Shown: piece by piece, positions 3,818 through 52,440 of the stretch
Layout of the letters: every line of letters begins with the position of its first letter
Position numbering within the stretch: the stretch's first letter is position 1
The notes under the pieces: generated by a model
The model's input: the letters and a program-made list of their open reading frames with translations, nothing else
Told to the model about the DNA's origin: nothing
The model's database searches: none
Assembly (NCBI GenBank): GCA_041662785.1
Contig: JBAZRW010000003.1
Coordinates: 142,531-206,530, forward strand
Length of the DNA stretch: 64,000 nt
Origin: Bdellovibrionales bacterium
GTDB taxonomy: Bacteria > Pseudomonadota > Alphaproteobacteria > UBA9219
Direction: 5' to 3'
Made by a program: the position numbers and the translations under genes

Positions 3818-4644
3818 CAGCGCTTATGCGCGCCTTGGGCAAGGGCGGCGGTAAAGGACAGAACCTCGCGCACAAGACCTTCGCGGGGATTGCCTGCGCC
3901 GTCCAAGCGCTTGGCGATATGCGTCATGATGGCGCTGCCTACGATCACGGCATCGGCGGCGCTTGCCATTTCATGGGCTTGCTCTGGCGTGCTGACACCA
4001 AAACCAATTGCGATGGGGAGCGTAGATTTCTCGCGCACACGCCCGATCAGATTGCCAAGGGAGGCGGCGGTTGCGGTGGCCGCCCCCGTAATGCCCGCAA
4101 TAGAAACGCAGTATAAAAAGCCTTGAGCGTCTTTAAGAACTGTCGGTAAGCGTCCCGCGTCTGTCGTTGGCGTCACAAGACGGATCATCAACATATCGCG
4201 CTGAGCGGCGGGAAGGCGGAACTCCGCATCCTCTTCGGGAGGCAAATCGGGGATGATAAAAGCGTCCACGCCCGCTTTTCTGGCATCGTCCAGAAAGCGC
4301 ATGATGCCATAGCTGTAAATTGGGTTGTAATAGCCCATCAGGATGATCGGCGTTTCGTTATCCGTTTTACGGAAGTCACGCACCATGTTCAAAATCTTAG
4401 GAACCGTGATGCCCGCTTTAAAGGCTTGCAGGTTCGCGGTCTGAATCGCAGGGCCATCCGCCATCGGGTCGCTGAACGGCATGCCGATTTCGATGATATC
4501 CGCGCCAGCCTTGGGAAAGCCTGCGAGGATCTCAGGGTAAAGCTCAAGGTTCGGGTAGCCCGCCGTGGCAAAGGGGATAAAGGCCTTTTGCCCCGCTTTT
4601 TTCAAGGTGGCGAACCGTGCGTCGAGGCGATTGATTGTGTCCAT
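3814..4644 (-). CDS. trpA: tryptophan synthase alpha chain
   Basis: 276 aa; TrpA motifs (FIPFATAGYP, EIGMPFSDPMADGPAIQ). Start overlaps the trpB stop. Confidence 0.9.
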   Translation of the reverse strand: MDTINRLDARFATLKKAGQKAFIPFATAGYPNLELYPEILAGFPKAGADIIEIGMPFSDPMADGPAIQTANLQAFKAGITVPKILNMVRDFRKTDNETPIILMGYYNPIYSYGIMRFLDDARKAGVDAFIIPDLPPEEDAEFRLPAAQRDMLMIRLVTPTTDAGRLPTVLKDAQGFLYCVSIAGITGAATATAASLGNLIGRVREKSTLPIAIGFGVSTPEQAHEMASAADAVIVGSAIMTHIAKRLDGAGNPREGLVREVLSFTAALAQGAHKRC

Positions 4645-5949: not shown

Positions 5950-5970
5950 TTCTGTCTGCTGTTGCGCTCT

Positions 5971-6031
5971 ATTGTCCGCTACCACCCGTTAGGCGTTTCC
6001 ACCAGCCGCCTTTGGGCTGATCGCCACCGGA
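5971..6031. repeat. 61-bp direct repeat, copy 1 (duplicate of the rne 3' end)
   Basis: Identical to 6917-6977; it would encode the last ~20 residues of RNase E (NPSGGDQPKGGWWKRLTGGSGQ*). Confidence 0.9.
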
Positions 6032-6035
6032 GGGG

Positions 6036-6893
6036 TTAATTATTGCTGTGTCGGTAGGGGGTGGAGACACGGGGAAAAGCATCTCGAACGGGCTCGTATT
6101 TCTTAAGAATACGATCCATCTGACCACTGTAGACAATCTCCTGCATTGCGTAATCAAGAAACTCCTTTGTTTCATAATCGCCTTTTTTGACGACCAAGGC
6201 GTTTCCAAAAATCCGTAATGGTTTGTCGATGCCGAGGGAGCGAACTGTCCCCGGATTCTTTTGCAAAAACTCGGCAGCCATGGAAGGTTCGGCAAAAATA
6301 ACATCAGCTTTCTTCGTCACAACATTCTCAAAGTTTTGTGAAAACTGAGCTGTGTCAGGTAATGAGACACGCTCTAGCTCTGAAAAATCCGCACGGGCGA
6401 TAGAATCCTCCATCGCGCCATCGACGACCGATAACCGCGCCTTTGCCGTTCTAAGATCATCAAGCGTGTGAAACCGATTATCATCTGAACGAACCCACGC
6501 TTGAATGGTGCTGTAAAAGGCTGGCTGAGAGAAGGAAGCAGCCAAAGCGCGGCTAGCATTCGGCCACAGTCCGCCGCAGAAAACATCAAAACGACCCGCA
6601 TCCAATCCGGGCATGATGTTCTGAAAACCGACTTCTTCGGCCCATCGAATGCGCAAATCGGCATTACGACCAATTTGCTCCATGATGTCATAGAAAATGC
6701 CTGACAACTTTCCTGTGTTGGGGTCGAGGCGAATATACGGGGAATAGACCAGATATCCGCAACTGATCTCATGTGATGCGCGGATATGGTGCAGCGTTGA
6801 GGCGTTTCCATTTGCGTTTTGCTCTTGCGGTTTGCATCCACCAAGGAGTGAGATGCAAACGATAACTGCAAGTGATGCTTTACGAAAACTCAT
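6036..6893 (-). CDS. solute-binding protein family 3 (amino-acid ABC-type periplasmic binding protein-like) lipoprotein, orphan
   Basis: 285 aa with signal peptide plus lipobox (LLGGC) and the SBP_bac_3 fold pattern. ~40% identical to the paralogue at 24392-25252. No permease or ATPase genes adjacent. Confidence 0.7.
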   Translation of the reverse strand: MSFRKASLAVIVCISLLGGCKPQEQNANGNASTLHHIRASHEISCGYLVYSPYIRLDPNTGKLSGIFYDIMEQIGRNADLRIRWAEEVGFQNIMPGLDAGRFDVFCGGLWPNASRALAASFSQPAFYSTIQAWVRSDDNRFHTLDDLRTAKARLSVVDGAMEDSIARADFSELERVSLPDTAQFSQNFENVVTKKADVIFAEPSMAAEFLQKNPGTVRSLGIDKPLRIFGNALVVKKGDYETKEFLDYAMQEIVYSGQMDRILKKYEPVRDAFPRVSTPYRHSNN

Positions 6894-6914: not shown

Positions 6915-9494
6915 TTATTGTCCGCTACCACCCGTTAGGCGTTTCCACCAGCCGCCTTTGGGCTGATCGCCACCGGATGGGTTAACAACTTCATAGGATG
7001 AAGAGCCTTGTCCGACGGGTCTTGGTGTTGTGTCAAGATCATGAATGCTGGTTGGAATGAACGGCTTTGGCGCAGCGGCGCGTTCATGAGAGGCGCGTGG
7101 AGGGCGGCCTCCGCCATTCCCATTCCCCGTTGCGGGTGCAGCAGCGGCTTCGCCTGCTTCACGAGGCTCCCCGCCATTGCGGCGGCGACCACCGCGACGA
7201 CCACGACGGCGACGGCTCTTGCCATCAGGATCAGTATCCTGCTCTTGCGCCGAGGGGCGAGGCGATGATTGCAAATCTTCGCCCAGATCAAGGGAGGACG
7301 TGTTCGCTTCAGGAGAAGCAAAAGGATCATCCGTGGATGCACGCGGCGTTTCACTGCCTCGCCCTCCACGACGGCTTGTGCTGGGGCGGCCCGCGCGATC
7401 ATGTTTGCGGAAACGGCTGCGGCCCCCGCGGCGGCCTGTTCCTTCGGTTGAGCCTTCCTCTTGCGAGGGTGAGGGCGAGGAGTCCCCCTCAGTCTCATCA
7501 CGGGACTCGTCATGCGAGAAGAGTGGCATATCGCGTTCGGTATCAGCAATGACCTGATCCGCGTTCACAGCCGGTTCGGCGCGGCGAGACGTGGGGCGAC
7601 CCTTGGCGCGTTCCAACTTATAACCCGGAGGCGGGATCGCGTCGTCGTTTTGAATGACGATGGTCAGACCGTAGCGCGATTCTAAGGAGCCAACTGCGTC
7701 GCGCTTGTGGTTAAGGATATAGACGGCGACGTTGGTCGGAATTTGAACCGTGATCTCATTCGTGCGTTGCTTGATGGCTTCTTCTTCAATAGCGCGAAGA
7801 ATGGATAGCGCCGCCGAGTCAGGCGAGCGAATATAGCCAGAGCCGGAGCAATGCGGGCATTTCTCAAAGTTGATTTCAATCAGGCTGGGGCGCAGACGTT
7901 GGCGCGACAGTTCCAGCAAACCGAAGGGTGAGATGCGGCCAATTTGCAAACGCGCACGGTCATTCTTCATCGATTCTTTGATGCGGCGTTCGACGGCGGC
8001 GTTATTGCGGCCATCTTCCATATCGATGAAATCGATAACGACTAGACCTGCCAGATCGCGAAGGCGCAGTTGGCGTGCGATTTCTTCGGCGGCCTCAAGA
8101 TTGGTTTTAACCGCCGTTTCCTCAATATGGCGTTCACGCGTGGCGCGGCCAGAGTTCACGTCGATGGACACCAGCGCTTCGGTCGGGTTGATGACCAAAT
8201 AGCCGCCAGAGCGTAGCTGCACAATCGGGCTGTTGAGCGTATCAATTTGGTTTTCCACTTGGAAGCGGATAAACAGCGGCGTCGGATCGTTATAGAGCTT
8301 AACCTTGTCGGCCTGATCGGGCATGACGGCGCGTATAAACTCGTGCGCTTTTTCAAAGCCCTCTTGGCCTGCAATCAAAATCTCGGCGATGTCTTGCGTG
8401 TACAAATCACGCACCGAGCGCTTGATTAGGTTCGCTTCCTCATAAATCAGCGTCGGTGCGCTGGAGGCCAGCGTTTGTTCGCGGATGCTGTCCCACATGG
8501 ACAAAAGATATTCCAAATCGCGCTGAATGTCGGGCGGATCCTGTTCCATGCCCGCCGTGCGCAAGATGACGGCCATGCCTTCGGGGATTTCCAGTTGATC
8601 CAGAATCTCCTTCATACGGCGACGGTCTTGGTGATTGGTAATTTTGCGTGAGACGCCGCCACCGTGATCTGTGTTGGGCATCAAAACACAATAGCGTCCG
8701 GCAAGTGACAGGAAGCTGGTCAAGGCTGCGCCTTTATTCCCGCGCTCTTCCTTCACAACCTGAATGAGCATGACTTGGCCGCGCTTTAGGACTTCTTGAA
8801 TCTTATAGCGGGGGCGATGCTGGCGCACGATGCGCTCGGTCACTTCGCCGCCAACGCTTTCGGGCGGCGCTTCGGGCATTGCGACCTCGGTCAGCGACCC
8901 CCCCCCGATAGCGGCGTTGCCAAAATCTGTGATCAGGCCGACGCTTGTGTCCTCATCGCCAAACGCATGAGCCAAGCTGCTAATAGGGGCAGACGACGGC
9001 TGGGCGGTTGGGGCTGCGGAAGACTCCTCCGCCAAAAGAGCTTCCTCAACGGGAGCTTCATCCTCGGTTGGAGACGTTGTGGCCTTATCTTGCGTGTAGT
9101 CTTTGTCGTCGTCATCGGCCTCATCAGGAGCGGAATCGTTCCCGTTAAGCTCAGAGTCGATATCCGTATCCTCTTGGTCTTCTTCGTCCATAGAGTCGTC
9201 GTCCGACTCTTCCTCATCATGGGGGCGATCCGCCATGGGGATGCGGAAGTAATCGGGATGGATTTCGCTGAAGGGCAAGAAGCCGTGGCGGTTGCCGCCG
9301 TACTCGACAAAAGCGGCCTGCAAGGACGGCTCAATGCGCATGACCTTGGCCAGATAGATATTGCCCCGCAAGATAGGCTTGCTGGCCAAACTAAAGTCAA
9401 GATCTTCTAATCTATTGTTATCTCTATAGCTTTCGACAATTGCTATACGAGTCTCTTCGGGATGCATGGCATCCACCAACATTCTTTTCGTCAT
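6915..9494 (-). CDS. rne: ribonuclease E
   Basis: 859 aa. N-terminal S1 domain interrupted by a long acidic insertion (DEEESDDDSMDEEDQED...), as in alphaproteobacterial RNase E. Catalytic core present (DFIDMED..., CPHCSGSGYIRS zinc-link). Arg-rich C-terminal scaffold. Confidence 0.9.
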   Translation of the reverse strand: MTKRMLVDAMHPEETRIAIVESYRDNNRLEDLDFSLASKPILRGNIYLAKVMRIEPSLQAAFVEYGGNRHGFLPFSEIHPDYFRIPMADRPHDEEESDDDSMDEEDQEDTDIDSELNGNDSAPDEADDDDKDYTQDKATTSPTEDEAPVEEALLAEESSAAPTAQPSSAPISSLAHAFGDEDTSVGLITDFGNAAIGGGSLTEVAMPEAPPESVGGEVTERIVRQHRPRYKIQEVLKRGQVMLIQVVKEERGNKGAALTSFLSLAGRYCVLMPNTDHGGGVSRKITNHQDRRRMKEILDQLEIPEGMAVILRTAGMEQDPPDIQRDLEYLLSMWDSIREQTLASSAPTLIYEEANLIKRSVRDLYTQDIAEILIAGQEGFEKAHEFIRAVMPDQADKVKLYNDPTPLFIRFQVENQIDTLNSPIVQLRSGGYLVINPTEALVSIDVNSGRATRERHIEETAVKTNLEAAEEIARQLRLRDLAGLVVIDFIDMEDGRNNAAVERRIKESMKNDRARLQIGRISPFGLLELSRQRLRPSLIEINFEKCPHCSGSGYIRSPDSAALSILRAIEEEAIKQRTNEITVQIPTNVAVYILNHKRDAVGSLESRYGLTIVIQNDDAIPPPGYKLERAKGRPTSRRAEPAVNADQVIADTERDMPLFSHDESRDETEGDSSPSPSQEEGSTEGTGRRGGRSRFRKHDRAGRPSTSRRGGRGSETPRASTDDPFASPEANTSSLDLGEDLQSSPRPSAQEQDTDPDGKSRRRRGRRGGRRRNGGEPREAGEAAAAPATGNGNGGGRPPRASHERAAAPKPFIPTSIHDLDTTPRPVGQGSSSYEVVNPSGGDQPKGGWWKRLTGGSGQ
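6917..6977. repeat. 61-bp direct repeat, copy 2 (native rne 3' end)
   Basis: Perfect match to 5971-6031. Confidence 0.9.
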
Positions 9495-14694: not shown

Positions 14695-14800
14695 GTCATT
14701 CCGGCGCAAGCCGGAATCCAGCGCCGAGTGTCCACGAGGCGTATGAGTCATAAGCGCCGCAGACGCGGCGCACTGGATCCCGACTTTCGTCGGGATGACG
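14695..14800. repeat. MITE-like palindromic repeat, family B copy (inverted relative to 39297)
   Basis: GTCATTCCGGCGCAAGCCGGAATCCAGC ... GCACTGGATCCCGACTTTCGTCGGGATGAC. The core is the reverse complement of the core at 39330-39380. Confidence 0.75.
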
Positions 14801-14877
14801 CAAGGGATGAGGTTTGGCGAAATAGAGCGAGAGTTGTTATAACGAATACGATGCAGAGGAATAGGAGAATAATCGCG

Positions 14878-19534: not shown

Positions 19535-19665
19535 AAAGAAAAAAGAAAACGGGATCCCCGCTTTCGCGGGGATGACGATAGCAGGATGAAATTAAACACA
19601 AAACCCGTCATTCCCGCGCAAGCGGGAATCCCGTTTGTTTTCTTTCTCAACGAGTCGTTTCATGA
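19535..19665. repeat. MITE-like palindromic repeat, family A copy
   Basis: AGAAAACGGGATCCCCGCTTTCGCGGGGATGACG - atagcaggatgaaattaaacacaaaac - CGTCATTCCCGCGCAAGCGGGAATCCCGTTTGTTTTCT. Arms are about 38 nt and inverted. Confidence 0.8.
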
Positions 19666-21185: not shown

Positions 21186-22115
21186 TTGATGAGTGATCGT
21201 TCGCTGCGCCATCCAGAGAAACAAAAGAATACGGACAGCTTTGGCCCGCCCAAGCCAGAGTGGCTGCACGTGCGTGCGCCAGCTGGGTTTAATTATGCCA
21301 AGACGCTGGAGCTTATGCAGGGGCAAAAGCTCACCACCGTGTGCCAAGAGGCGGCTTGCCCCAATATCGGTGAGTGTTGGAAGCGTAAACATGCGGCCTT
21401 TATGATCATGGGCGATATTTGCACGCGGGCGTGCGCATTTTGCAATGTTGCGACAGGCAAGCCCAAGCGCCTTGATAAGGGCGAGCCGGAAAGGCTGGCC
21501 GCCGCCGCCGCGCAGATGGGCTTGAAGTATGTCATCGTGACATCGGTGGATCGTGATGATTTGTCCGATGGCGGCGCGGCGCATTTCGCGAATGTGATCG
21601 CGGCGCTGCGCGCGGGCGTGCCGGACTGCGTGATTGAAGTATTGACTCCCGATTTCAAGAATAAGGAGGGCGGGGCGCAGACCCTCGCCGCCGCACGTCC
21701 CGATGTGTTCAATCATAACCTTGAAACCGTGCCGCGTTTGTATCCAGCGATCCGGCCCGGAGCGCGGTGTTTTACTTCGCTGCGGCTGTTGCAGCAGGTC
21801 AAGGAAATTGACGCTTCCATCTTTACCAAGTCGGGCTTGATGGTTGGCCTTGGCGAAACGAAGGAGGAAATAGGGCAGGTGATGGACGACCTTCGCGCCG
21901 CTGGCGTGGACTTCCTAACCATCGGCCAGTATTTGCAGCCAACGCCCAAGCATGCGCCGCTTGATCGCTATGTCACACCGGACGAGTTCGCCGCTTATGC
22001 CAAGATGGCCAAGGCCAAGGGCTTTTCGCTGGTGTCTAGCTCTCCGCTCACGCGATCCTCGTATTTTGCGGATGAGGATTTTAAGAAACTAAAGGCCTCC
22101 CGTGATGAACAGTAA
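21186..22115 (+). CDS. lipA: lipoyl synthase
   Basis: Two cysteine clusters CPNIGECW and [10 protein letters not shown] (radical-SAM CxxxCxxC). Confidence 0.95.
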
Positions 22116-22788
22116 TGCGATTAAACTCGATCCCTCATGGCTTGCCGTGATTGGCGGCGAGTTCGACCAACCCTATATGCAAAAGCTGAAGCAGTTTTTG
22201 CTGGAGGAGAAAACGGGGCGGCACATTGTCTATCCGCGCGGCGACCATATCTTTAACGCGCTGAACGCGATTCCGTTTGATCGCGTGCGTGTTGTTATCA
22301 TCGGACAAGACCCCTATCACGGCGAGGGGCAGGCGCATGGTCTTTGCTTTTCAGTGCAGGATGGCGTGGCGCTGCCGCCCAGCCTTATCAATATCTATAA
22401 GGAAATTGCGGCGGAGTATGGCTGCGCGATGCCCAAAAGCGGCGACCTTACGCGCTGGGCAAAGCAAGGCGTCTTGCTGCTTAATGCAACGCTGACCGTG
22501 CGGGCGGGGCAGGCGGGCTCTCATCAAAACAAAGGGTGGGAGACATTCACCGACGCCGTGATCCGCGCCGTGAATGACCAGCGCGAGCATGTCGTGTTTT
22601 TGCTGTGGGGGGCCTATGCCCAAAAGAAGGGCGCGATGATCGACCGCACGCGCCACAGCGTTCTAACCGCGCCGCATCCCTCGCCGCTTTCCGCGCACAG
22701 AGGGTTCCTAGGCTGCGGACACTTCCGCGCCGCCAACGAATACCTTGTCCGGCAGGGGCAAGAGCCGATTGATTGGGTGGGGGAGTAA
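22102..22788 (+). CDS. ung: uracil-DNA glycosylase, family 1
   Basis: [19 protein letters not shown] water-activating loop; HPSPLS motif near the C-terminus. Confidence 0.9.
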
Positions 22789-22811
22789 GGCGCAGTCGCG
22801 CCCAAAAGAAA

Positions 22812-22885
22812 TGGAGCGGGTGAAGGGAATCGAACCCTCATAGCCAGCTTGGAAGGCTGGTGCTTTACCACTAAGCTACACCCGC
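22812..22885 (-). tRNA. tRNA-Gly (anticodon TCC)
   Basis: Reverse complement GCGGGTGTAGCTTAGTGGTAAAGCACCAGCCTTCCAAGCTGGCTATGAGGGTTCGATTCCCTTCACCCGCTCCA folds as a cloverleaf with anticodon-loop UCC. Confidence 0.85.
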
Positions 22886-22935
22886 TCATGGGTGGTTGTT
22901 CTGTATCATGCCGTTTTTACGGCGGCAAGCCGCCG

Positions 22936-23040
22936 TGGGTGAAGGGAATGATCAAAAACAGGCGGAACGCGCCTGTTTTTGCCCCTTCGGGCGCCCCCGC
23001 TTCGCGGGATGCGTCCAAAATGCTTTCGCATTTTGTCGAT
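22936..23040. repeat. 105-bp segment B between 100-bp direct repeats: tRNA-Gly 3'-end fragment + GATCAAAAAC + palindromes
   Basis: TGGGTGAAGGGAAT (matches the tRNA-Gly 3' part) - GATCAAAAAC - CAGGCG/CGCCTG hairpin - TTTTTGCCC - cccgcTTCGgcggg and aaatgcTTTCgcattt hairpins. Confidence 0.6.
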
Positions 23041-23090
23041 CCTCATAGCCAGCTTGGAAGGCTGGTGCTTTACCACTAAGCTACACCCGC
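23041..23090 (-). pseudogene. truncated duplicate of tRNA-Gly (positions 1-50 only)
   Basis: 50 nt identical to the 5' half of the tRNA at 22836-22885, followed by an identical 50-bp upstream region (23091-23140 = 22886-22935); the T-arm and acceptor 3' strand are missing. Confidence 0.8.
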
Positions 23091-23152
23091 TCATGGGTGG
23101 TTGTTCTGTATCATGCCGTTTTTACGGCGGCAAGCCGCCGTTAATTCCTGCC

Positions 23153-23298
23153 GTCATCCCCGCGAAAGCGGGGATCCAGCTGCGAGCGATAGCGAGCGTG
23201 TGAGTCGAACAAGACAACAAACAGCACTTCCCTAGACCTTTTTTGAGTCACGTGGCCCGCAGACGCGGGCCGCTGGATCCCCGCTTTCGCGGGGATGA
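23153..23298. repeat. MITE-like palindromic repeat, family B copy
   Basis: GTCATCCCCGCGAAAGCGGGGATCCAGC ... GCTGGATCCCCGCTTTCGCGGGGATGAC perfect inverted termini around a ~90-bp core. Confidence 0.8.
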
Positions 23299-23512
23299 CT
23301 GGAATAGGTAACAATAAGGCATCATCCTCTATCACGAGCCTTTTATTACAGCAAGATAGAAGTGTAAGAAAGGTATAAAATCCTCTTTCTTTTTCTGTAC
23401 AAATGGGGTAAAAAGCACCGTTCCCAACAAATCAATAAGCTTTGTCCGACGTGATCGCCGGACGGGCGATTCTGGGTTCAAGGACAGTTCTTAATGATTG
23501 TATGAGGCTTTT

Positions 23513-23588
23513 AGGAGTGTAGCTCAATTGGTAGAGCGTCGGTCTCCAAAACCGAAGGCTGCGGGTTCGATCCCCTCCACTCCTGCCA
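23513..23588 (+). tRNA. tRNA-Trp (anticodon CCA)
   Basis: AGGAGTGTAGCTCAATTGGTAGAGCGTCGGTCTCCAAAACCGAAGGCTGCGGGTTCGATCCCCTCCACTCCTGCCA. It has the canonical position upstream of secE-nusG. One C-U mismatch in the T-stem. Confidence 0.85.
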
Positions 23589-23630
23589 CCTCATAATGGC
23601 CAAGAACTTGAAAAAAACAAGGAGCCTACA

Positions 23631-23828
23631 ATGGCAAAGTTAGTTGAGTTTTTTAATGAGACCAAGCGAGAGATCGGCAAGGTGACTTGGCCGACGCAAA
23701 AAGAAATCGTCATGACGACCGTGTTGATTGTGGCCATGGCCTTGGTCGCTGGGTTGTTTTTCTTTTTCGTCGATAACGTCTTGGGTTTCGCAATTAGCAA
23801 GATTTTGGGCATGAGAGCCGGTTCATAA
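23631..23828 (+). CDS. secE: preprotein translocase subunit SecE
   Basis: 65 aa with a single TM helix; conserved GKVTWPT motif; precedes nusG. Confidence 0.85.
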   Translation: MAKLVEFFNETKREIGKVTWPTQKEIVMTTVLIVAMALVAGLFFFFVDNVLGFAISKILGMRAGS

Positions 23829-23840
23829 GGAGCATTCACG

Positions 23841-24371
23841 ATGGCACTTCGTTGGTACGTTATTCACGTTTATTCGGGCTTTGAAAAAAAGGTCGCGCAG
23901 ACCATTCGCGAAACCGCGATGAAAAAAGGTCTTGAAGATTTCTTCTCGGAAATCCTTGTCCCCACTGAAGAGGTGATCGAGGTTCGTCGTGGCAAGAAAG
24001 TCGGGGCCGAGCGCAAGTTCCTTCCGGGCTATGTCCTGATTAAGATGGACCTGACGGACGAGAGCTGGCATCTGGTCAAGAACACGGCCAAGGTCACGGG
24101 CTTTTTGGGCGGCGGCGGCAAGCCTTCGCCTATCTCGGAAAAGGAAGCCCAGCGCATCCTTAACCAAGTCCAAGAAGGCTTTGAACATCCCAAACCCTCT
24201 ATCACCTTTGTGGTGGGTGAGCAGGTTCGCGTGGCCGAAGGGCCGTTTGCCTCATTTAATGGCGTTGTTGAGGACGTGGATGAGGGTAAATCGCGCTTGA
24301 AGGTTGCGGTGTCGATCTTTGGCCGCGCTACGCCAGTTGAGCTGGAATTCACGCAGGTGGAGAAGATTTAG
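23841..24371 (+). CDS. nusG: transcription termination/antitermination factor NusG
   Basis: 176 aa; NGN domain (WYVIHVYSGFEKKV) and KOW domain (VGEQVRVAEGPFASFNGVVEDVD). Confidence 0.95.
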   Translation: MALRWYVIHVYSGFEKKVAQTIRETAMKKGLEDFFSEILVPTEEVIEVRRGKKVGAERKFLPGYVLIKMDLTDESWHLVKNTAKVTGFLGGGGKPSPISEKEAQRILNQVQEGFEHPKPSITFVVGEQVRVAEGPFASFNGVVEDVDEGKSRLKVAVSIFGRATPVELEFTQVEKI

Positions 24372-24391
24372 ATCAACTAAGGAGTAGTTAC

Positions 24392-25252
24392 GTGAAAACT
24401 GTTGGTCTGTTCGTTGCCGCCATTCTAATCGCGTTATCGTCCGTTTGGCTTCACGATAAAAATGTGCACACTGTCAATGCAACGCAAGAGACAGCCTATG
24501 ATCGCGTGTTGCACACCAAGACTTTGCGGTGTGGATACGCTGATTGGCCTCCTCATGGACTTGTAAAAGATCCGAATACGGGAAAAATTTCCGGCGTCAT
24601 GTACGATATCCTTGAAGAGATTGGACGTCGTTTGAGTCTTAAGATTGACTGGAGCGAGAATACGGGGTGGAGCAATATTGTAAGCAGTCTTCAATCAAAG
24701 CGCATTGACGTTTTCTGCGCTGGTTTGTGGGTGAATGCCGAGCGTGGTCGTTCCTTGACATATTCTATGCCACTTTTTTTCAACGCATCGTTCCCCTTTG
24801 TCAGAATCGATGATCATCGGTTTGATAAGGACATCAAACGTGCCGATTCATCGGACATTCGTTTTTCTTCCATAGAGGGTGAGTTATCGGATGCCACAGC
24901 ACGCCTTCATTTCCCGAAAGCGCAGAAAATACCGGTGAGCCAGATGTTGCAGGCTTCCGAAGCCCTGAACAACATTGCAGTTAACAAAGCGGATATTATT
25001 ATTCTGGATTACAGCATGGGGAAAGGGTTCATAGATTCTAACCCTTCTACCTTGCGTAAATTAGGGGACAAACCTTTTCAGGTTTTCCAGAACTCCCTTG
25101 GCTTTGATATTCATGAAAACACGCTGCGCGATATGATTAACAATGCCCTTAATGAGATGCACAATCAGGGGGTTATTGCCAATATTGTTGCGAAACACAG
25201 TAACGATCCCAGTGAGTTTATTCCAGTCGCTCCGTCTTATTTGCAGCCGTAG
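24392..25252 (+). CDS. solute-binding protein family 3, orphan paralogue inserted between nusG and rplK
   Basis: 286 aa, GTG start with AAGGAG RBS, signal peptide. About 40% identical to the 6036-6893 product (shared CGY...DPNTGK.SG..YDI.E.IG......I.W.E..G......L.....DVFC.GLW). Confidence 0.7.
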   Translation: MKTVGLFVAAILIALSSVWLHDKNVHTVNATQETAYDRVLHTKTLRCGYADWPPHGLVKDPNTGKISGVMYDILEEIGRRLSLKIDWSENTGWSNIVSSLQSKRIDVFCAGLWVNAERGRSLTYSMPLFFNASFPFVRIDDHRFDKDIKRADSSDIRFSSIEGELSDATARLHFPKAQKIPVSQMLQASEALNNIAVNKADIIILDYSMGKGFIDSNPSTLRKLGDKPFQVFQNSLGFDIHENTLRDMINNALNEMHNQGVIANIVAKHSNDPSEFIPVAPSYLQP

Positions 25253-25441: not shown

Positions 25442-25523
25442 CGTCACTCCCGCGTAAGCGGGAGTCCCGTTTGTTTTAACAAGTAAACGGGATCCCCGCT
25501 TTCGCGGGGATGACGAAAATGGA
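25442..25523. repeat. family A arm-pair in outward (rearranged) orientation
   Basis: CGTCACTCCCGCGTAAGCGGGAGTCCCGTTTGTTTT-aacaagt-AAACGGGATCCCCGCTTTCGCGGGGATGACG. Confidence 0.6.
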
Positions 25524-27235: not shown

Positions 27236-27530
27236 ACAGCCCTAAGAGCGTGGGATAGTGCCACTCAGTCGCCTTCCGCTCAAAGTTAATGCGGTAAGCC
27301 TTTGAAATATAATAAAACTGACTCGATTTTTTGGCATGGCTAACCAATTGATTTTACATGGTTTTATGAACTTCGTCCGATTTTGGATCGCCAAAAGCAA
27401 AAAAAACGCAGGATTGGGGGCGACTCTTTTCGTCATCCCGCACCCCTCTACGCCCTTTGGGCTTCGCGGGGCAGGCGAAGCCTTGCGCGAAGGCGGGACG
27501 ATGATGCGGGACCTAGGGGACTGGGCGACG
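27236..27530. repeat. ~300-bp repeat, family C copy 1
   Basis: Shares about 230 nt of interrupted similarity with 52133-52440 (AGCGTGGrATAGTGCCACTCAGT..CCTTCCGCTCAAAGTTAA ... GCTAACCAATTGATT ... CCGATTTTGGATyGCCAAAAGCAAAAAA ... CGTCATCCCsgaCCCCTCTrCGCCCTTyGGGCTTCGCGGGGCAGGCrAAGC). Confidence 0.7.
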
Positions 27531-30465: not shown

Positions 30466-30585
30466 TAGAGAAAAAAGAAAATGGATGCCAGCCTTCGCTG
30501 GCATGACAAGGGGTAGGAGGTAAAGTTAATCCTAATCCGTCATCCCCGCGCAGGCGGGGATCCCATTTTTTAATTTTTCCACTGC
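30466..30585. repeat. MITE-like repeat, family A variant copy
   Basis: AGAAAATGGATGCCAGCCTTCGCTGGCATGACAA - core ggggtaggaggtaaagttaatcc - GTCATCCCCGCGCAGGCGGGGATCCCATTTTTTAATTTTT. Confidence 0.6.
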
Positions 30586-34744: not shown

Positions 34745-34855
34745 CTGTCCCATTCTTCGTCATCCCGCACCCCTCTACGCCCTTCGGGCTTCGCGGGGCA
34801 GGCGAAGCGACGCGTGAACATCGCGTAGATGCGGGATGACGAAATAGTGAATGGC
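34745..34855. repeat. hairpin module shared with family C repeats
   Basis: CGTCATCCCGC-acccctctacgcccttcgggcttcgcggggcaggcgaagc...-GCGGGATGACG; the same inner sequence is present at 27432 and 52336. Confidence 0.65.
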
Positions 34856-39296: not shown

Positions 39297-39401
39297 GTCA
39301 TCCCCGCGAAGGCGGGGATCCAGCTGCGCGGCGTCTGCCGCGCCTAAGACTCATACGCCTCGCGGACGCTCGGCGCTGGATTCCCGCCTTCGCGGGAATG
39401 A
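39297..39401. repeat. MITE-like palindromic repeat, family B copy
   Basis: GTCATCCCCGCGAAGGCGGGGATCCAGC-49 nt core-GCTGGATTCCCGCCTTCGCGGGAATGAC. Confidence 0.8.
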
Positions 39402-39465
39402 CAAAACGGGTAAGGACTAACGCCATCGCCCGTCTTGGCAGAAAATCGATCTTAATGAAATAATC

Positions 39466-42735: not shown

Positions 42736-42737
42736 TT

Positions 42738-42787
42738 GGTCGGAGAGAGAGGATTGATCAAAAACGCTCGCTTCTCGCGTTTTTGCC
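42738..42787. repeat. 19-nt direct copy of the tRNA-Pro 3' end + GATCAAAAAC + palindrome + TTTTTGCCC
   Basis: TGGTCGGAGAGAGAGGATT is identical to 42941-42959. The junction motif is the same as next to tRNA-Gly at 22936-22984. Confidence 0.75.
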
Positions 42788-42940
42788 CGTCAAGCGGCGC
42801 CTCGTCAGCCTCCGTTCTTTCAGAACTACGGCGTGACTGCGGCGTCCAAAACCGCCTTCGCAGTTTTGTCGAACCTCCTTCTTCGGTTCGAAATGCTAAT
42901 CTTTGACCATTAAAAAAGCCCCCCTATGGGGCTTTTTTAA

Positions 42941-43017
42941 TGGTCGGAGAGAGAGGATTCGAACCTCCGGCCCCTGCCTCCCGAAGGCAGTGCTCTACCG
43001 GGCTGAGCTACTCTCCG
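42941..43017 (-). tRNA. tRNA-Pro (anticodon CGG)
   Basis: Reverse complement CGGAGAGTAGCTCAGCCCGGTAGAGCACTGCCTTCGGGAGGCAGGGGCCGGAGGTTCGAATCCTCTCTCTCCGACCA; terminator hairpin immediately downstream (42912-42938). Confidence 0.85.
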
Positions 43018-44157: not shown

Positions 44158-44300
44158 AATAAAAAAAACGGGATCCCCGCTTTGCCCTTTCGCCCGCCGC
44201 AAGAGCGGCGGGACGAGGGCGCGGGGATGACGATAGAGGGTAAAACTTAAACAAAAACCCGTCATGCCCGTGAAAACGGGCATCCCGTTTGTTTTCTTTT
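44158..44300. repeat. MITE-like repeat, family A copy with nested insert in left arm
   Basis: AAAACGGGATCCCCGC[tttgccctttcgcccgccgcaagagcggcgggacgagggc]GCGGGGATGACG - atagagggtaaaacttaaacaaaaaccc - GTCATGCCCGTGAAAACGGGCATCCCGTTTGTTTTCT. Confidence 0.75.
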
Positions 44301-52132: not shown

Positions 52133-52440
52133 TCGAGCAGAGCGTGGAATAGTGCCACTCAGTATCCTTCCGCTCAAAGTTAACGTCGTAAGTCTTTGAT
52201 ATACAACGAAACTGACTCGAATTTGGGTCTATGCTAACCAATTGATTCTAAAGGGCTTTGTCAACTTCGCCCGATTTTGGATTGCCAAAAGCAAAAAATC
52301 AGGAGTCAGGGGGTGAGGTTCAGAGTTGGTCTCTCCTCTTTCGTCATCCCCGACCCCTCTGCGCCCTTCGGGCTTCGCGGGGCAGGCAAAGCGACGCAGC
52401 AGCGGAGCGGAGATACAGGATACATCTTCTGAAATGACCA
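52133..52440. repeat. ~300-bp repeat, family C copy 2
   Basis: Matches 27236-27530 in several blocks; ends in a CGTCATCCC...GCAGGCAAAGC hairpin module. Confidence 0.7.

Follow-up and report, generated by a model that had tools for sequence, protein, structure and literature searches.

The window analyzed in this study, i.e., the whole stretch of 64,000 nt from position 142,531 to 206,530 of contig JBAZRW010000003.1 (assembly GCA_041662785.1), stems from a Bdellovibrionales bacterium that GTDB assigns to the Alphaproteobacteria (UBA9219). On its minus strand, an intact tRNA-Gly(UCC) gene is preceded by a second copy of the same gene, the T-loop of which is split by a unit of 87 nt with four hairpins (hp1 to hp4). 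Homologous units were found at a tRNA-Pro fragment within the window and on four contigs (L124, L154, L155, and L156) of uncultured metagenomic alphaproteobacteria, which together with the window make up the five lineages compared below. A covariance model, R1, was built from all seven units (two each from the window and L124, one each from L154, L155, and L156), and bit scores of units refer to this model. The tRNA-Gly locus contains the following features:

22812..22885, minus strand: intact tRNA-Gly(UCC), the working gene (ARAGORN; Rfam tRNA model, 75.9 bits)
22886..22936, minus strand: putative promoter region of the intact copy, within the 101-nt repeat (-35 TTGCCG, 22928 to 22923; TG-extended -10 TACAGA, 22905 to 22900)
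22937..22948, minus strand: 3′ piece of the interrupted tRNA-Gly, TTCCCTTCACCC (exact match to tRNA nt 57-68)
22949..23035, minus strand: T-loop insertion unit, 87 nt, four hairpins (R1, 116.6 bits; DNA fold z = -5.8; covariation; homologous units)
23036..23090, minus strand: 5′ piece of the interrupted tRNA-Gly (nt 1-50 as in the working gene; Rfam tRNA model, 29.1 bits over 23021-23090)
23091..23141, minus strand: putative promoter copy before the interrupted gene, 51 nt (-35, 23133 to 23128; -10, 23110 to 23105; exact repeat, motif conservation across lineages)

A first-pass annotation made from the sequence alone had described direct repeats at 22836-22935 and 23041-23140. A repeat search confirmed them and gave a length of 101 nt at 100% identity (22836-22936 and 23041-23141, spacing 205, with 104 nt between the two copies), and as such an exact length is far beyond chance, the repeat is real. 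Read on the minus strand, a promoter region and the T-loop-split tRNA-Gly copy are followed by the same promoter region and the intact tRNA-Gly. In addition, a 13-nt repeat, GGGTGAAGGGAAT (given as reverse complement, part of the tRNA 3′-end), occurs at 22818 and at 22937-22949. Its spacing of 119 nt implies that a stretch of about 119 bp, from -51 to nt 68 of the gene, was originally duplicated in tandem. The segment 22937-22949, which had been taken for the tRNA 3′-part opening the insert, continues the right-hand tRNA copy (23090 to 23036) after the 87-nt insertion. Consequently, the supposed half-gene next to the intact tRNA-Gly is a nearly whole tRNA-Gly (nt 1-55 and 57-68) that is split in its T-loop and truncated at its 3′-end, the insertion point in the T-loop having been missed.

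This insertion point lies directly after the fifth base of the T-loop, 5′-GGTTCGA^TT (between A58 and N59 in standard numbering). In the window, the interrupted copy reads GAGG-A-TCGA after nt 50, i.e., its T-stem and T-loop are mutated and one base short. The 3′ piece TTCCCTTCACCC spans T-loop nt 6-7, the 3′-strand of the T-stem and 5 nt of the acceptor 3′-strand, and ends at the duplication junction (CACCC/ACGG, with the slash marking the break). The upstream copy is doubly disabled, by the unit in its T-loop and by the loss of the acceptor 3′-end, which the junction cuts at nt 68. ARAGORN makes no call on interrupted copies, and the Rfam tRNA model is barely at threshold on their 5′-part.

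A Second Unit at tRNA-Pro

A motif search located TTGGACGC and TTTTTGATCA about 95 nt apart near a tRNA-Pro gene of the window, where the following features were assigned:

42941..43017, minus strand: intact tRNA-Pro(CGG) (ARAGORN; Rfam), with a terminator after the gene at about 42938 to 42912
42869..42878, minus strand: 5′ piece of a tRNA-Pro T-arm fragment, GGAGGTTCGA (T-stem 5′-strand and T-loop nt 1-5; 10-nt exact match ending at T-loop position 5)
42755..42868, minus strand: second unit, 114 nt, subfamily B, with enlarged hp2 (R1, 78.5 bits, E-value 6.6e-25; DNA fold z = -4.7)
42737..42754, minus strand: 3′ piece of the tRNA-Pro fragment, ATCCTCTCTCTCCGACCA, reaching to CCA (18-nt exact match to the tRNA-Pro 3′-end)

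The order on the minus strand is tRNA-Pro, its terminator, about 30 nt, GGAGGTTCGA, the 114-nt unit, ATCCTCTCTCTCCGACCA and a second terminator-like hairpin (about 42732 to 42705) after the 3′ piece. This unit is located about 20 kb from the one at tRNA-Gly and occupies the same T-loop position, so that a unit-bearing pseudo-copy stands beside two of the three tRNA genes of the window. The suggestion of a novel and very small tRNA-targeting element, already made in the first-pass annotation, gains support from this second unit in the T-loop of a tRNA-Pro fragment, as does the occurrence of further tRNA 3′-fragments with the same adjoining sequence that had been considered there: on the plus strand, the tRNA-Pro 3′-fragment runs on into TGATCAAAAAC and the second unit.

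Just upstream of the tRNA-Pro T-arm fragment (42879-42895, minus strand) lies TTCGAACC, an inverted copy of GGTTCGAA that can pair with the GGTTCGA of the fragment and might be left over from the event that gave rise to the fragment.

Structure and Sequence of the Unit Family

The unit at tRNA-Gly is composed of the following parts:

23035 to 23016, minus strand: hp1, CAAAATGC GAAA GCATTTTG
23016 to 23011, minus strand: invariant GGACGC
23013 to 22992, minus strand: hp2
22991 to 22981, minus strand: hp3, GCCC GAAG GGGC
22980 to 22954, minus strand: hp4, A5-CAGGCG...CGCCTG-T5
22953 to 22949, minus strand: tail GATCA

All parts of the insert named earlier, including GATCAAAAAC, the CAGGCG/CGCCTG hairpin and TTTTTGCCC, are indeed present, but they are accompanied by three further hairpins and not by two. 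The ends of the units are constant, each unit starting with the C at the foot of hp1 and finishing with GATCA, and the three motifs TTTGGACGC, GGGCAAAAA, and TTTTTGATCA are invariant in all seven. While hp1 begins at the first base of the unit, hp4 stops 4-5 nt short of the right end. The two ends (CAAAATGC... and ...TTTTTGATCA) do not form terminal inverted repeats, and the orientation is fixed, all units being sense to the tRNA.

Excision of the unit in silico restores the tRNA sequence exactly, the join always falling after T-loop base 5 and leaving no target duplication. In L124, L154, and L155, the tRNA is matched over 56 nt on the left flank and 11-14 nt on the right flank once the unit is removed; at tRNA-Pro, the left and right matches are 10 nt and 18 nt (to CCA) long, respectively. 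The left flank ends in TTCGA at four of the seven units and in the point-mutated forms ATCGA or GTCGA at two, while the remaining one follows the GATCA of another unit.

The predicted stems are supported by covariation. In an alignment of six sequences, which was fitted to the model, 92.7% of the cells were paired compared with 35-61% when the partners were slid, seven pairs had changed on both sides, and the observed values were reached by none of 500 shuffles. DNA fold z-scores of the units range from -4.4 to -6.4. Furthermore, the stems comprise six G·U pairs and no A·C pair, and in six out of six units the fold of the tRNA-sense strand is as stable as, or more stable than, that of the antisense strand. 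This asymmetry, together with the fold of the sense strand, indicates that the folding strand is the tRNA-sense one, either as RNA or as single-stranded DNA.

When R1 was run over the 64-kb window with filters off, it returned exactly two real matches, both in T-loops. On L124, L154, L155, and L156 it scored 102-111 bits, with one unit each apart from a tandem pair in L124, all of them at tRNA-Gly, and about 1.1 Mb of other retrieved DNA contained no match. Searches of Rfam 15 at permissive thresholds assigned the unit to no family, with only the tRNA model matching on the tRNA parts. BLAST searches with the unit against plasmids and phages yielded no match, and the same applies to a six-frame chimeric protein query designed to catch spurious open reading frame (ORF) calls elsewhere. 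Pattern scans of viral contigs gave nothing or chance matches, with model scores of at most 14 bits on the candidates.

The units fall into two subfamilies that are incongruent with the host tree. The unit of L154 is 82.7% identical to the tRNA-Pro unit of the window; its identity to the orthologously placed unit of its sister L155 is only 68%. The tandem units of L124 (2162-2333) share about 69 identical nt, which begin at TTTGGACGC and run to the unit end. Their hp1 stems differ at four positions per arm, all of which are compensated (AAATTGC/GCAATTT versus AAACGCC/GGCGTTT), and hp1 appears to behave as a replaceable or hypervariable module.

Two further structural assignments were considered and rejected. 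In the tRNA-Gly unit of the window hp4 looks like an intrinsic terminator, yet its G+C stem comprises only 3-5 bp in most units and was not flagged by the terminator scanner, which speaks against termination as a defining function. A pairing of TTCGAC with GGACGC proposed by RNAalifold was weak and lost in the second unit of L124.

Occurrence and Inheritance of the Module in Related Lineages

A metagenome scan using the D-to-anticodon sequence of the tRNA yielded 65 loci, and two matches on one contig were obtained only for L124. There, tRNA nt 1-56 are followed by two tandem 87-nt units and ATTCCCTTCACCCGC, after which the upstream region recurs before the intact tRNA, with tRNA-Trp and secE nearby as in the window. 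Among contigs reached via NusG homologs, L154, L155, and L156 carry the module of interrupted and intact tRNA-Gly, while it is absent from L148, L149, L158, and L159.

The duplication junction is alike in all five lineages, the tRNA breaking at nt 67-70 and joining the promoter region about 50 nt upstream (CACCC/ACG in the window and L155, CACCCGC/GC in L124). This similarity implies that the module was inherited and is neither an artifact nor the product of five independent accidents. In particular, an assembly artifact, which the first-pass annotation had named as a possible refutation, is very unlikely since the same architecture with diverged sequence is present in four independent assemblies (L124, L154, L155, and L156). 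The hosts are considerably diverged, with SecE proteins being 55-86% and a four-protein concatenate 81-92% identical; L154, L155, and L156 form a cluster at 90-92% identity, to which the window does not belong. In one clade the module is inverted relative to tRNA-Trp.

In its 5′-part, the interrupted copy does not differ from the working gene over 101 nt in the window, 80 nt in L124, 76 nt in L155, and 58 nt in L154, and identity of this length is indicative of gene conversion. In L156, the tRNA 5′-part has decayed (loss of the first 13 nt and two 1-nt deletions), leaving an exact direct repeat of only 23 nt; its unit is intact and scores 102 bits.

All ten tRNA-Gly copies of the five lineages, interrupted and intact, are preceded by the motif CTTGYC-N15-TGATAnn, which can plausibly be read as a TG-extended -10 element preceded, at a spacing of 17 nt, by a -35 element. 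A strict consensus promoter scan flagged no promoter at the tRNA-Gly copies, and promoter function is therefore deduced from conservation only. Transcription of the unit probably starts at the duplicated copy of the tRNA promoter.

The source organism is also present in a second public sample, SRR18595301, but its coverage there does not suffice to span the locus. Look-ups of exact protein matches returned only two short same-species Logan contigs, both from this sample, of which L082 (window 21776-22837) ends inside tRNA-Gly, 2 nt into the repeat, and L001 (window 23532-24696) starts inside tRNA-Trp, so that they neither confirm nor refute the repeat.

In the vicinity of tRNA-Gly, a family of secreted proteins (24-48% identical, no Pfam hit) is conserved next to the gene in L124 (2535-3428), L154 (1631-2740), L155 (2972-4147), L156 (3985-5100), and L150 (2697-3755); in the window, Ung is encoded on this side. 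The most similar Ung homologs (80 and 70% identity) lack a downstream tRNA. In place of the module, L150, whose NusG is 92% identical, contains four tandem 85-nt repeats 3′ of its tRNA-Gly(UCC) (4040-4461; also L151, 1-148). Each repeat consists of a hairpin-containing spacer of 59-60 nt and the last 25 nt of the tRNA, from the T-loop to CCA, and the host terminator follows the array. The T-loops of this array are uninterrupted, and the NCBI contig L151 breaks within it. The spacer shares only short suggestive matches with the unit, and R1 finds nothing there.

Mobile Element, Structured RNA, or Integration Scar

The units form a family of common structure which interrupts tRNA T-loops cleanly at one exact site and whose subfamilies do not follow the host tree. 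In our view, there is about an even chance that they represent a small non-autonomous element that is mobilized in trans and specific for TTCGA in tRNA T-loops. A trans-acting enzyme recognizing the single-stranded hairpin ends would paste the unit 3′ of the pentanucleotide TTCGA, following the "peel and paste" logic of IS200/IS605 and of its end-only PATE elements. At tRNA-Gly, a tandem duplication of 119-120 bp (about -51 to nt 68-70) would have created the truncated upstream copy, to which the unit would then have been added, with the copy of the window also losing one T-loop base. Gene conversion probably prevents the 5′-part of this copy from diverging from the working gene. As an insertion into the T-loop kills the tRNA, units would survive only in redundant targets such as the tandem tRNA-Gly duplicate and the tRNA-Pro 3′-fragment. 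Mobility as such, the class of enzyme and the order of events, with duplication preceding insertion, are what we infer from these patterns.

A number of observations weigh against such an element. Among the seven units, no pair of filled and empty sites was seen within a species, i.e., movement was not directly observed, and all seven are confined to tRNA-Gly or tRNA-Pro. The left hairpin begins at the first base of the unit and, unlike in IS608, leaves no room for a guide sequence next to the cleavage site. The covariation is derived from only six sequences aligned by fitting to the model. Pfam searches detected no transposase, RAYT or integrase among the 10 ORFs flanking both tRNA loci, the rest of the window being judged from its ORF list. 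Moreover, the interrupted copy has persisted through family-level divergence and the inversion of the module despite being flanked by direct repeats of 58-101 nt in four of the five lineages, and in L154 and L156 the motifs before it are kept though the remaining upstream region has diverged. This persistence and the kept promoter motifs speak for selection on a product that is expressed, rather than for purely selfish maintenance.

Such selection would be expected if the interrupted tRNA-Gly were the gene of a host-beneficial, tRNA-scaffolded structured RNA with its own copy of the tRNA promoter, an explanation that we regard as possible but tentative. The four-hairpin domain would then emerge at T-loop positions 59/60, a place at which T-loop motifs accept insertions, and the tRNA part would supply folding, RNase P processing, and stability. 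Beyond the CTTGYC-N15-TGATAnn motif in five of five lineages, including the diverged L154 and L156, and the persistence of the module across the given range of SecE divergence in spite of loss-promoting repeats, this explanation is in line with the covarying stems, the invariant single-stranded linkers GGACGC and GATCA, and the restriction of wobble pairs to the tRNA-sense strand. L124, L154, and L155 have also kept the T-stem, TTCGA, and 4-7 of the 7 acceptor pairs, which fits a functional scaffold; the scaffold is, however, not conserved throughout, since the T-loop of the window copy is mutated and its C2:G71 pair lost, and L156 lacks the 5′ 13 nt. That L156 has retained its unit, which at 102 bits scores on a par with the others, though its tRNA part decayed again favors an RNA gene. 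On the other hand, the tRNA-Pro copy lies behind a terminator, with no recognizable promoter and no tRNA body beyond T-arm and 3′-end, gene conversion and not selection accounts for the identical 5′ sequence of the interrupted tRNA-Gly and the working gene, and the conserved promoter could equally serve as a second promoter for the downstream tRNA-Gly. The incongruence of the subfamilies with the host tree and the lack of an Rfam family likewise count against an RNA gene, the expression of which is predicted from sequence signals. The two explanations do not exclude each other, as a mobile element could be expressed or domesticated. Seen more broadly, the units could be more than selfish DNA and form the working part of a conserved class of expressed RNAs in an uncultured alphaproteobacterial clade, each combining the T-arm of a tRNA or tRNA fragment with a four-hairpin domain at T-loop position 58/59 and encoded beside several tRNA genes, which we likewise regard as possible but tentative. 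In an even more speculative variant, a transcript of the unit and the flanking tRNA 3′ piece might direct a nuclease or recombinase to T-loops that are not interrupted, in analogy to the omega-RNAs of IS605 and their guidance of TnpB.

The first-pass annotation had compared the locus to att-site scarring by tRNA-targeting integrative elements. On this reading, it would result from integration and excision of an integrase-driven genomic island, with the repeats as att sites and the insert as the remnant of a larger element. tRNA T-arms are classical targets of integrases, the layout at tRNA-Pro (intact tRNA, about 77 nt, 3′-fragment from the T-stem) has the form of an attL/attR pair, and the four tandem repeats of L150 each end in the 3′ 25 nt of tRNA-Gly. 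The block duplicated at tRNA-Gly, however, consists of the promoter and the 5′ 50-56 nt and not of the 3′-part, which is opposite to the products of 3′-end-targeting integrases. No integrase ORF was found between or beside the tRNA-Gly repeats or among the 10 Pfam-tested ORFs, a near-identical junction has been inherited in five lineages, and the unit belongs to a conserved structured family instead of resembling random remnant DNA. The four types of junction share only one base (A) and thus offer no common overlap region as required by serine or tyrosine recombinases, for which reason a crossover by such enzymes was rejected. A scar of this kind is therefore regarded as highly unlikely. Hardly credible, finally, is a neutral accident, in which a chance tandem duplication met a genome-wide REP-type repeat, or an error of assembly. 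The genome does carry many small palindromic repeats and hp2 of the tRNA-Gly unit resembles a local repeat core, but the architecture is common to five independent assemblies, the unit is confined to T-loops, where it takes exactly the same position in tRNA-Gly and tRNA-Pro, and its invariant motifs are kept where the promoter spacers can no longer be aligned.

Comparison With Known Systems

A keyword search of the literature returned no description of a T-loop-targeted element of this kind. IS200/IS605 elements and end-only PATEs have neither inverted repeats nor target duplications, carry a hairpin at each end and insert 3′ of a fixed pentanucleotide, and fixed orientation, tandem copies, and the exchange of subfamilies between sites are also listed as features of this family (PMC7290912). 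The unit resembles PATEs and REP-RAYT systems in being short, non-coding, hairpin-ended, free of inverted repeats and target duplications, inserted in one orientation 3′ of a pentanucleotide and presumably moved in trans. It differs from them in that its target lies inside the tRNA T-loop, its left hairpin abuts the insertion point, it comprises four hairpins and long invariant linkers, its copy number is apparently low, and no cognate Y1/HUH transposase was seen. From a classical MITE it is distinguished by the lack of terminal inverted repeats and of a target-site duplication.

With tRNA-targeting integrative elements the unit shares entry at the T-arm, a disabled tRNA piece beside an intact gene and, at tRNA-Pro, the resemblance to an attL/attR pair. 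In contrast to these elements, it measures only 87-114 nt, has no integrase and no crossover core, and at tRNA-Gly it is the 5′-half and the promoter that are duplicated. An arrangement with direct repeats of a tRNA 3′-segment flanking the unit is seen only at tRNA-Pro and not at tRNA-Gly. The distal repeats of Escherichia coli tyrT are tandem repeats after a tRNA gene, each of which ends in the tRNA 3′-end. The L150 array and, more loosely, the tRNA-Pro fragment are similar to these repeats and their RtT RNA (RF00391). However, RtT is related to the unit neither in sequence nor in structure (RtT model, 14 bits, E-value 9.2), and no insertion interrupts the T-loop in the tyrT repeats.

Rickettsia palindromic elements (RPEs) are small alphaproteobacterial elements that are tolerated inside genes, reportedly including RNA genes. 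RPEs are dispersed in many genes, whereas the unit is found at one exact T-loop position and the tRNA copy hosting it is not kept functional. tRNA introns, namely bacterial group I introns in anticodon loops and archaeal introns with bulge-helix-bulge motifs, some of them in T-loops, are comparable with regard to the clean interruption with flanks in register. Unlike group I introns, whose conserved catalytic core measures at least about 200 nt, the unit is located in the T-loop, comprises 87-114 nt, and shows no match to an Rfam intron. Splicing could not yield a working tRNA either, since the interrupted copies do not contain the complete acceptor 3′-end. Overall, PATE/REP elements, tRNA att duplications, and tyrT repeats are the closest kinds, none of which has a T-loop target or the sequence and structure of the unit.

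Few short sequences in biology are as conserved as GGTTCGA of the T-loop, which nearly every tRNA gene carries. An element homing to it would find a target in every bacterial tRNA gene and would persist only beside a spare tRNA copy. If mobile, the unit would represent a new class of target for small bacterial repeats as well as a mechanism that forces the retention of tRNA gene duplications and produces pseudo-tRNAs missed by annotation pipelines. If it is instead part of an expressed RNA on a tRNA scaffold, this would add a new non-coding RNA family and mean that the tRNA scaffolds used in RNA engineering have a counterpart in nature. With the covariance model and the five loci at hand, this question is directly testable in public metagenome-assembled genomes and metatranscriptomes.

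Neighboring Genes and Other Repeats

The 10 neighboring ORFs examined with Pfam contain housekeeping or unrelated domains only, and a cognate Y1 HUH transposase (TnpA or RAYT) is not among them, with 64 kb of the genome being at hand. The genome also carries several other families of small palindromic repeats. One REP-like family, GTCATCCCCGCGAAAGCGGGGATCC, is spread genome-wide and usually occurs as inverted pairs; in the window it is found at 577-683, 14695-14801, 19540-19645, 23140-23312, 25443-25516, 30471-30570, 39297-39404, and 44159-44299. One of these inverted pairs abuts the putative promoter of the interrupted tRNA-Gly copy. The core of this repeat, which is also present in L002 and L091, is nearly equal to hp2 of the tRNA-Gly unit of the window.

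Another family of about 82 nt, TTCGTCATCCCGCACCCCTCTACGCCCTTCGGGCTTCGCGGGGCAGGCGAAGC..., is present at 27429-27510, 34756-34837, and 52340-52421. Two of its copies adjoin a 160-nt repeat with 84% identity (27245-27404 and 52139-52298), the copies of which are about 25 kb apart. In addition, a 70-nt direct repeat with 99% identity (5970-6039 and 6916-6985) brackets a single ORF of 285 aa (6036-6893, minus strand), and this pair could represent a gene-sized cassette or the boundary of a duplication.

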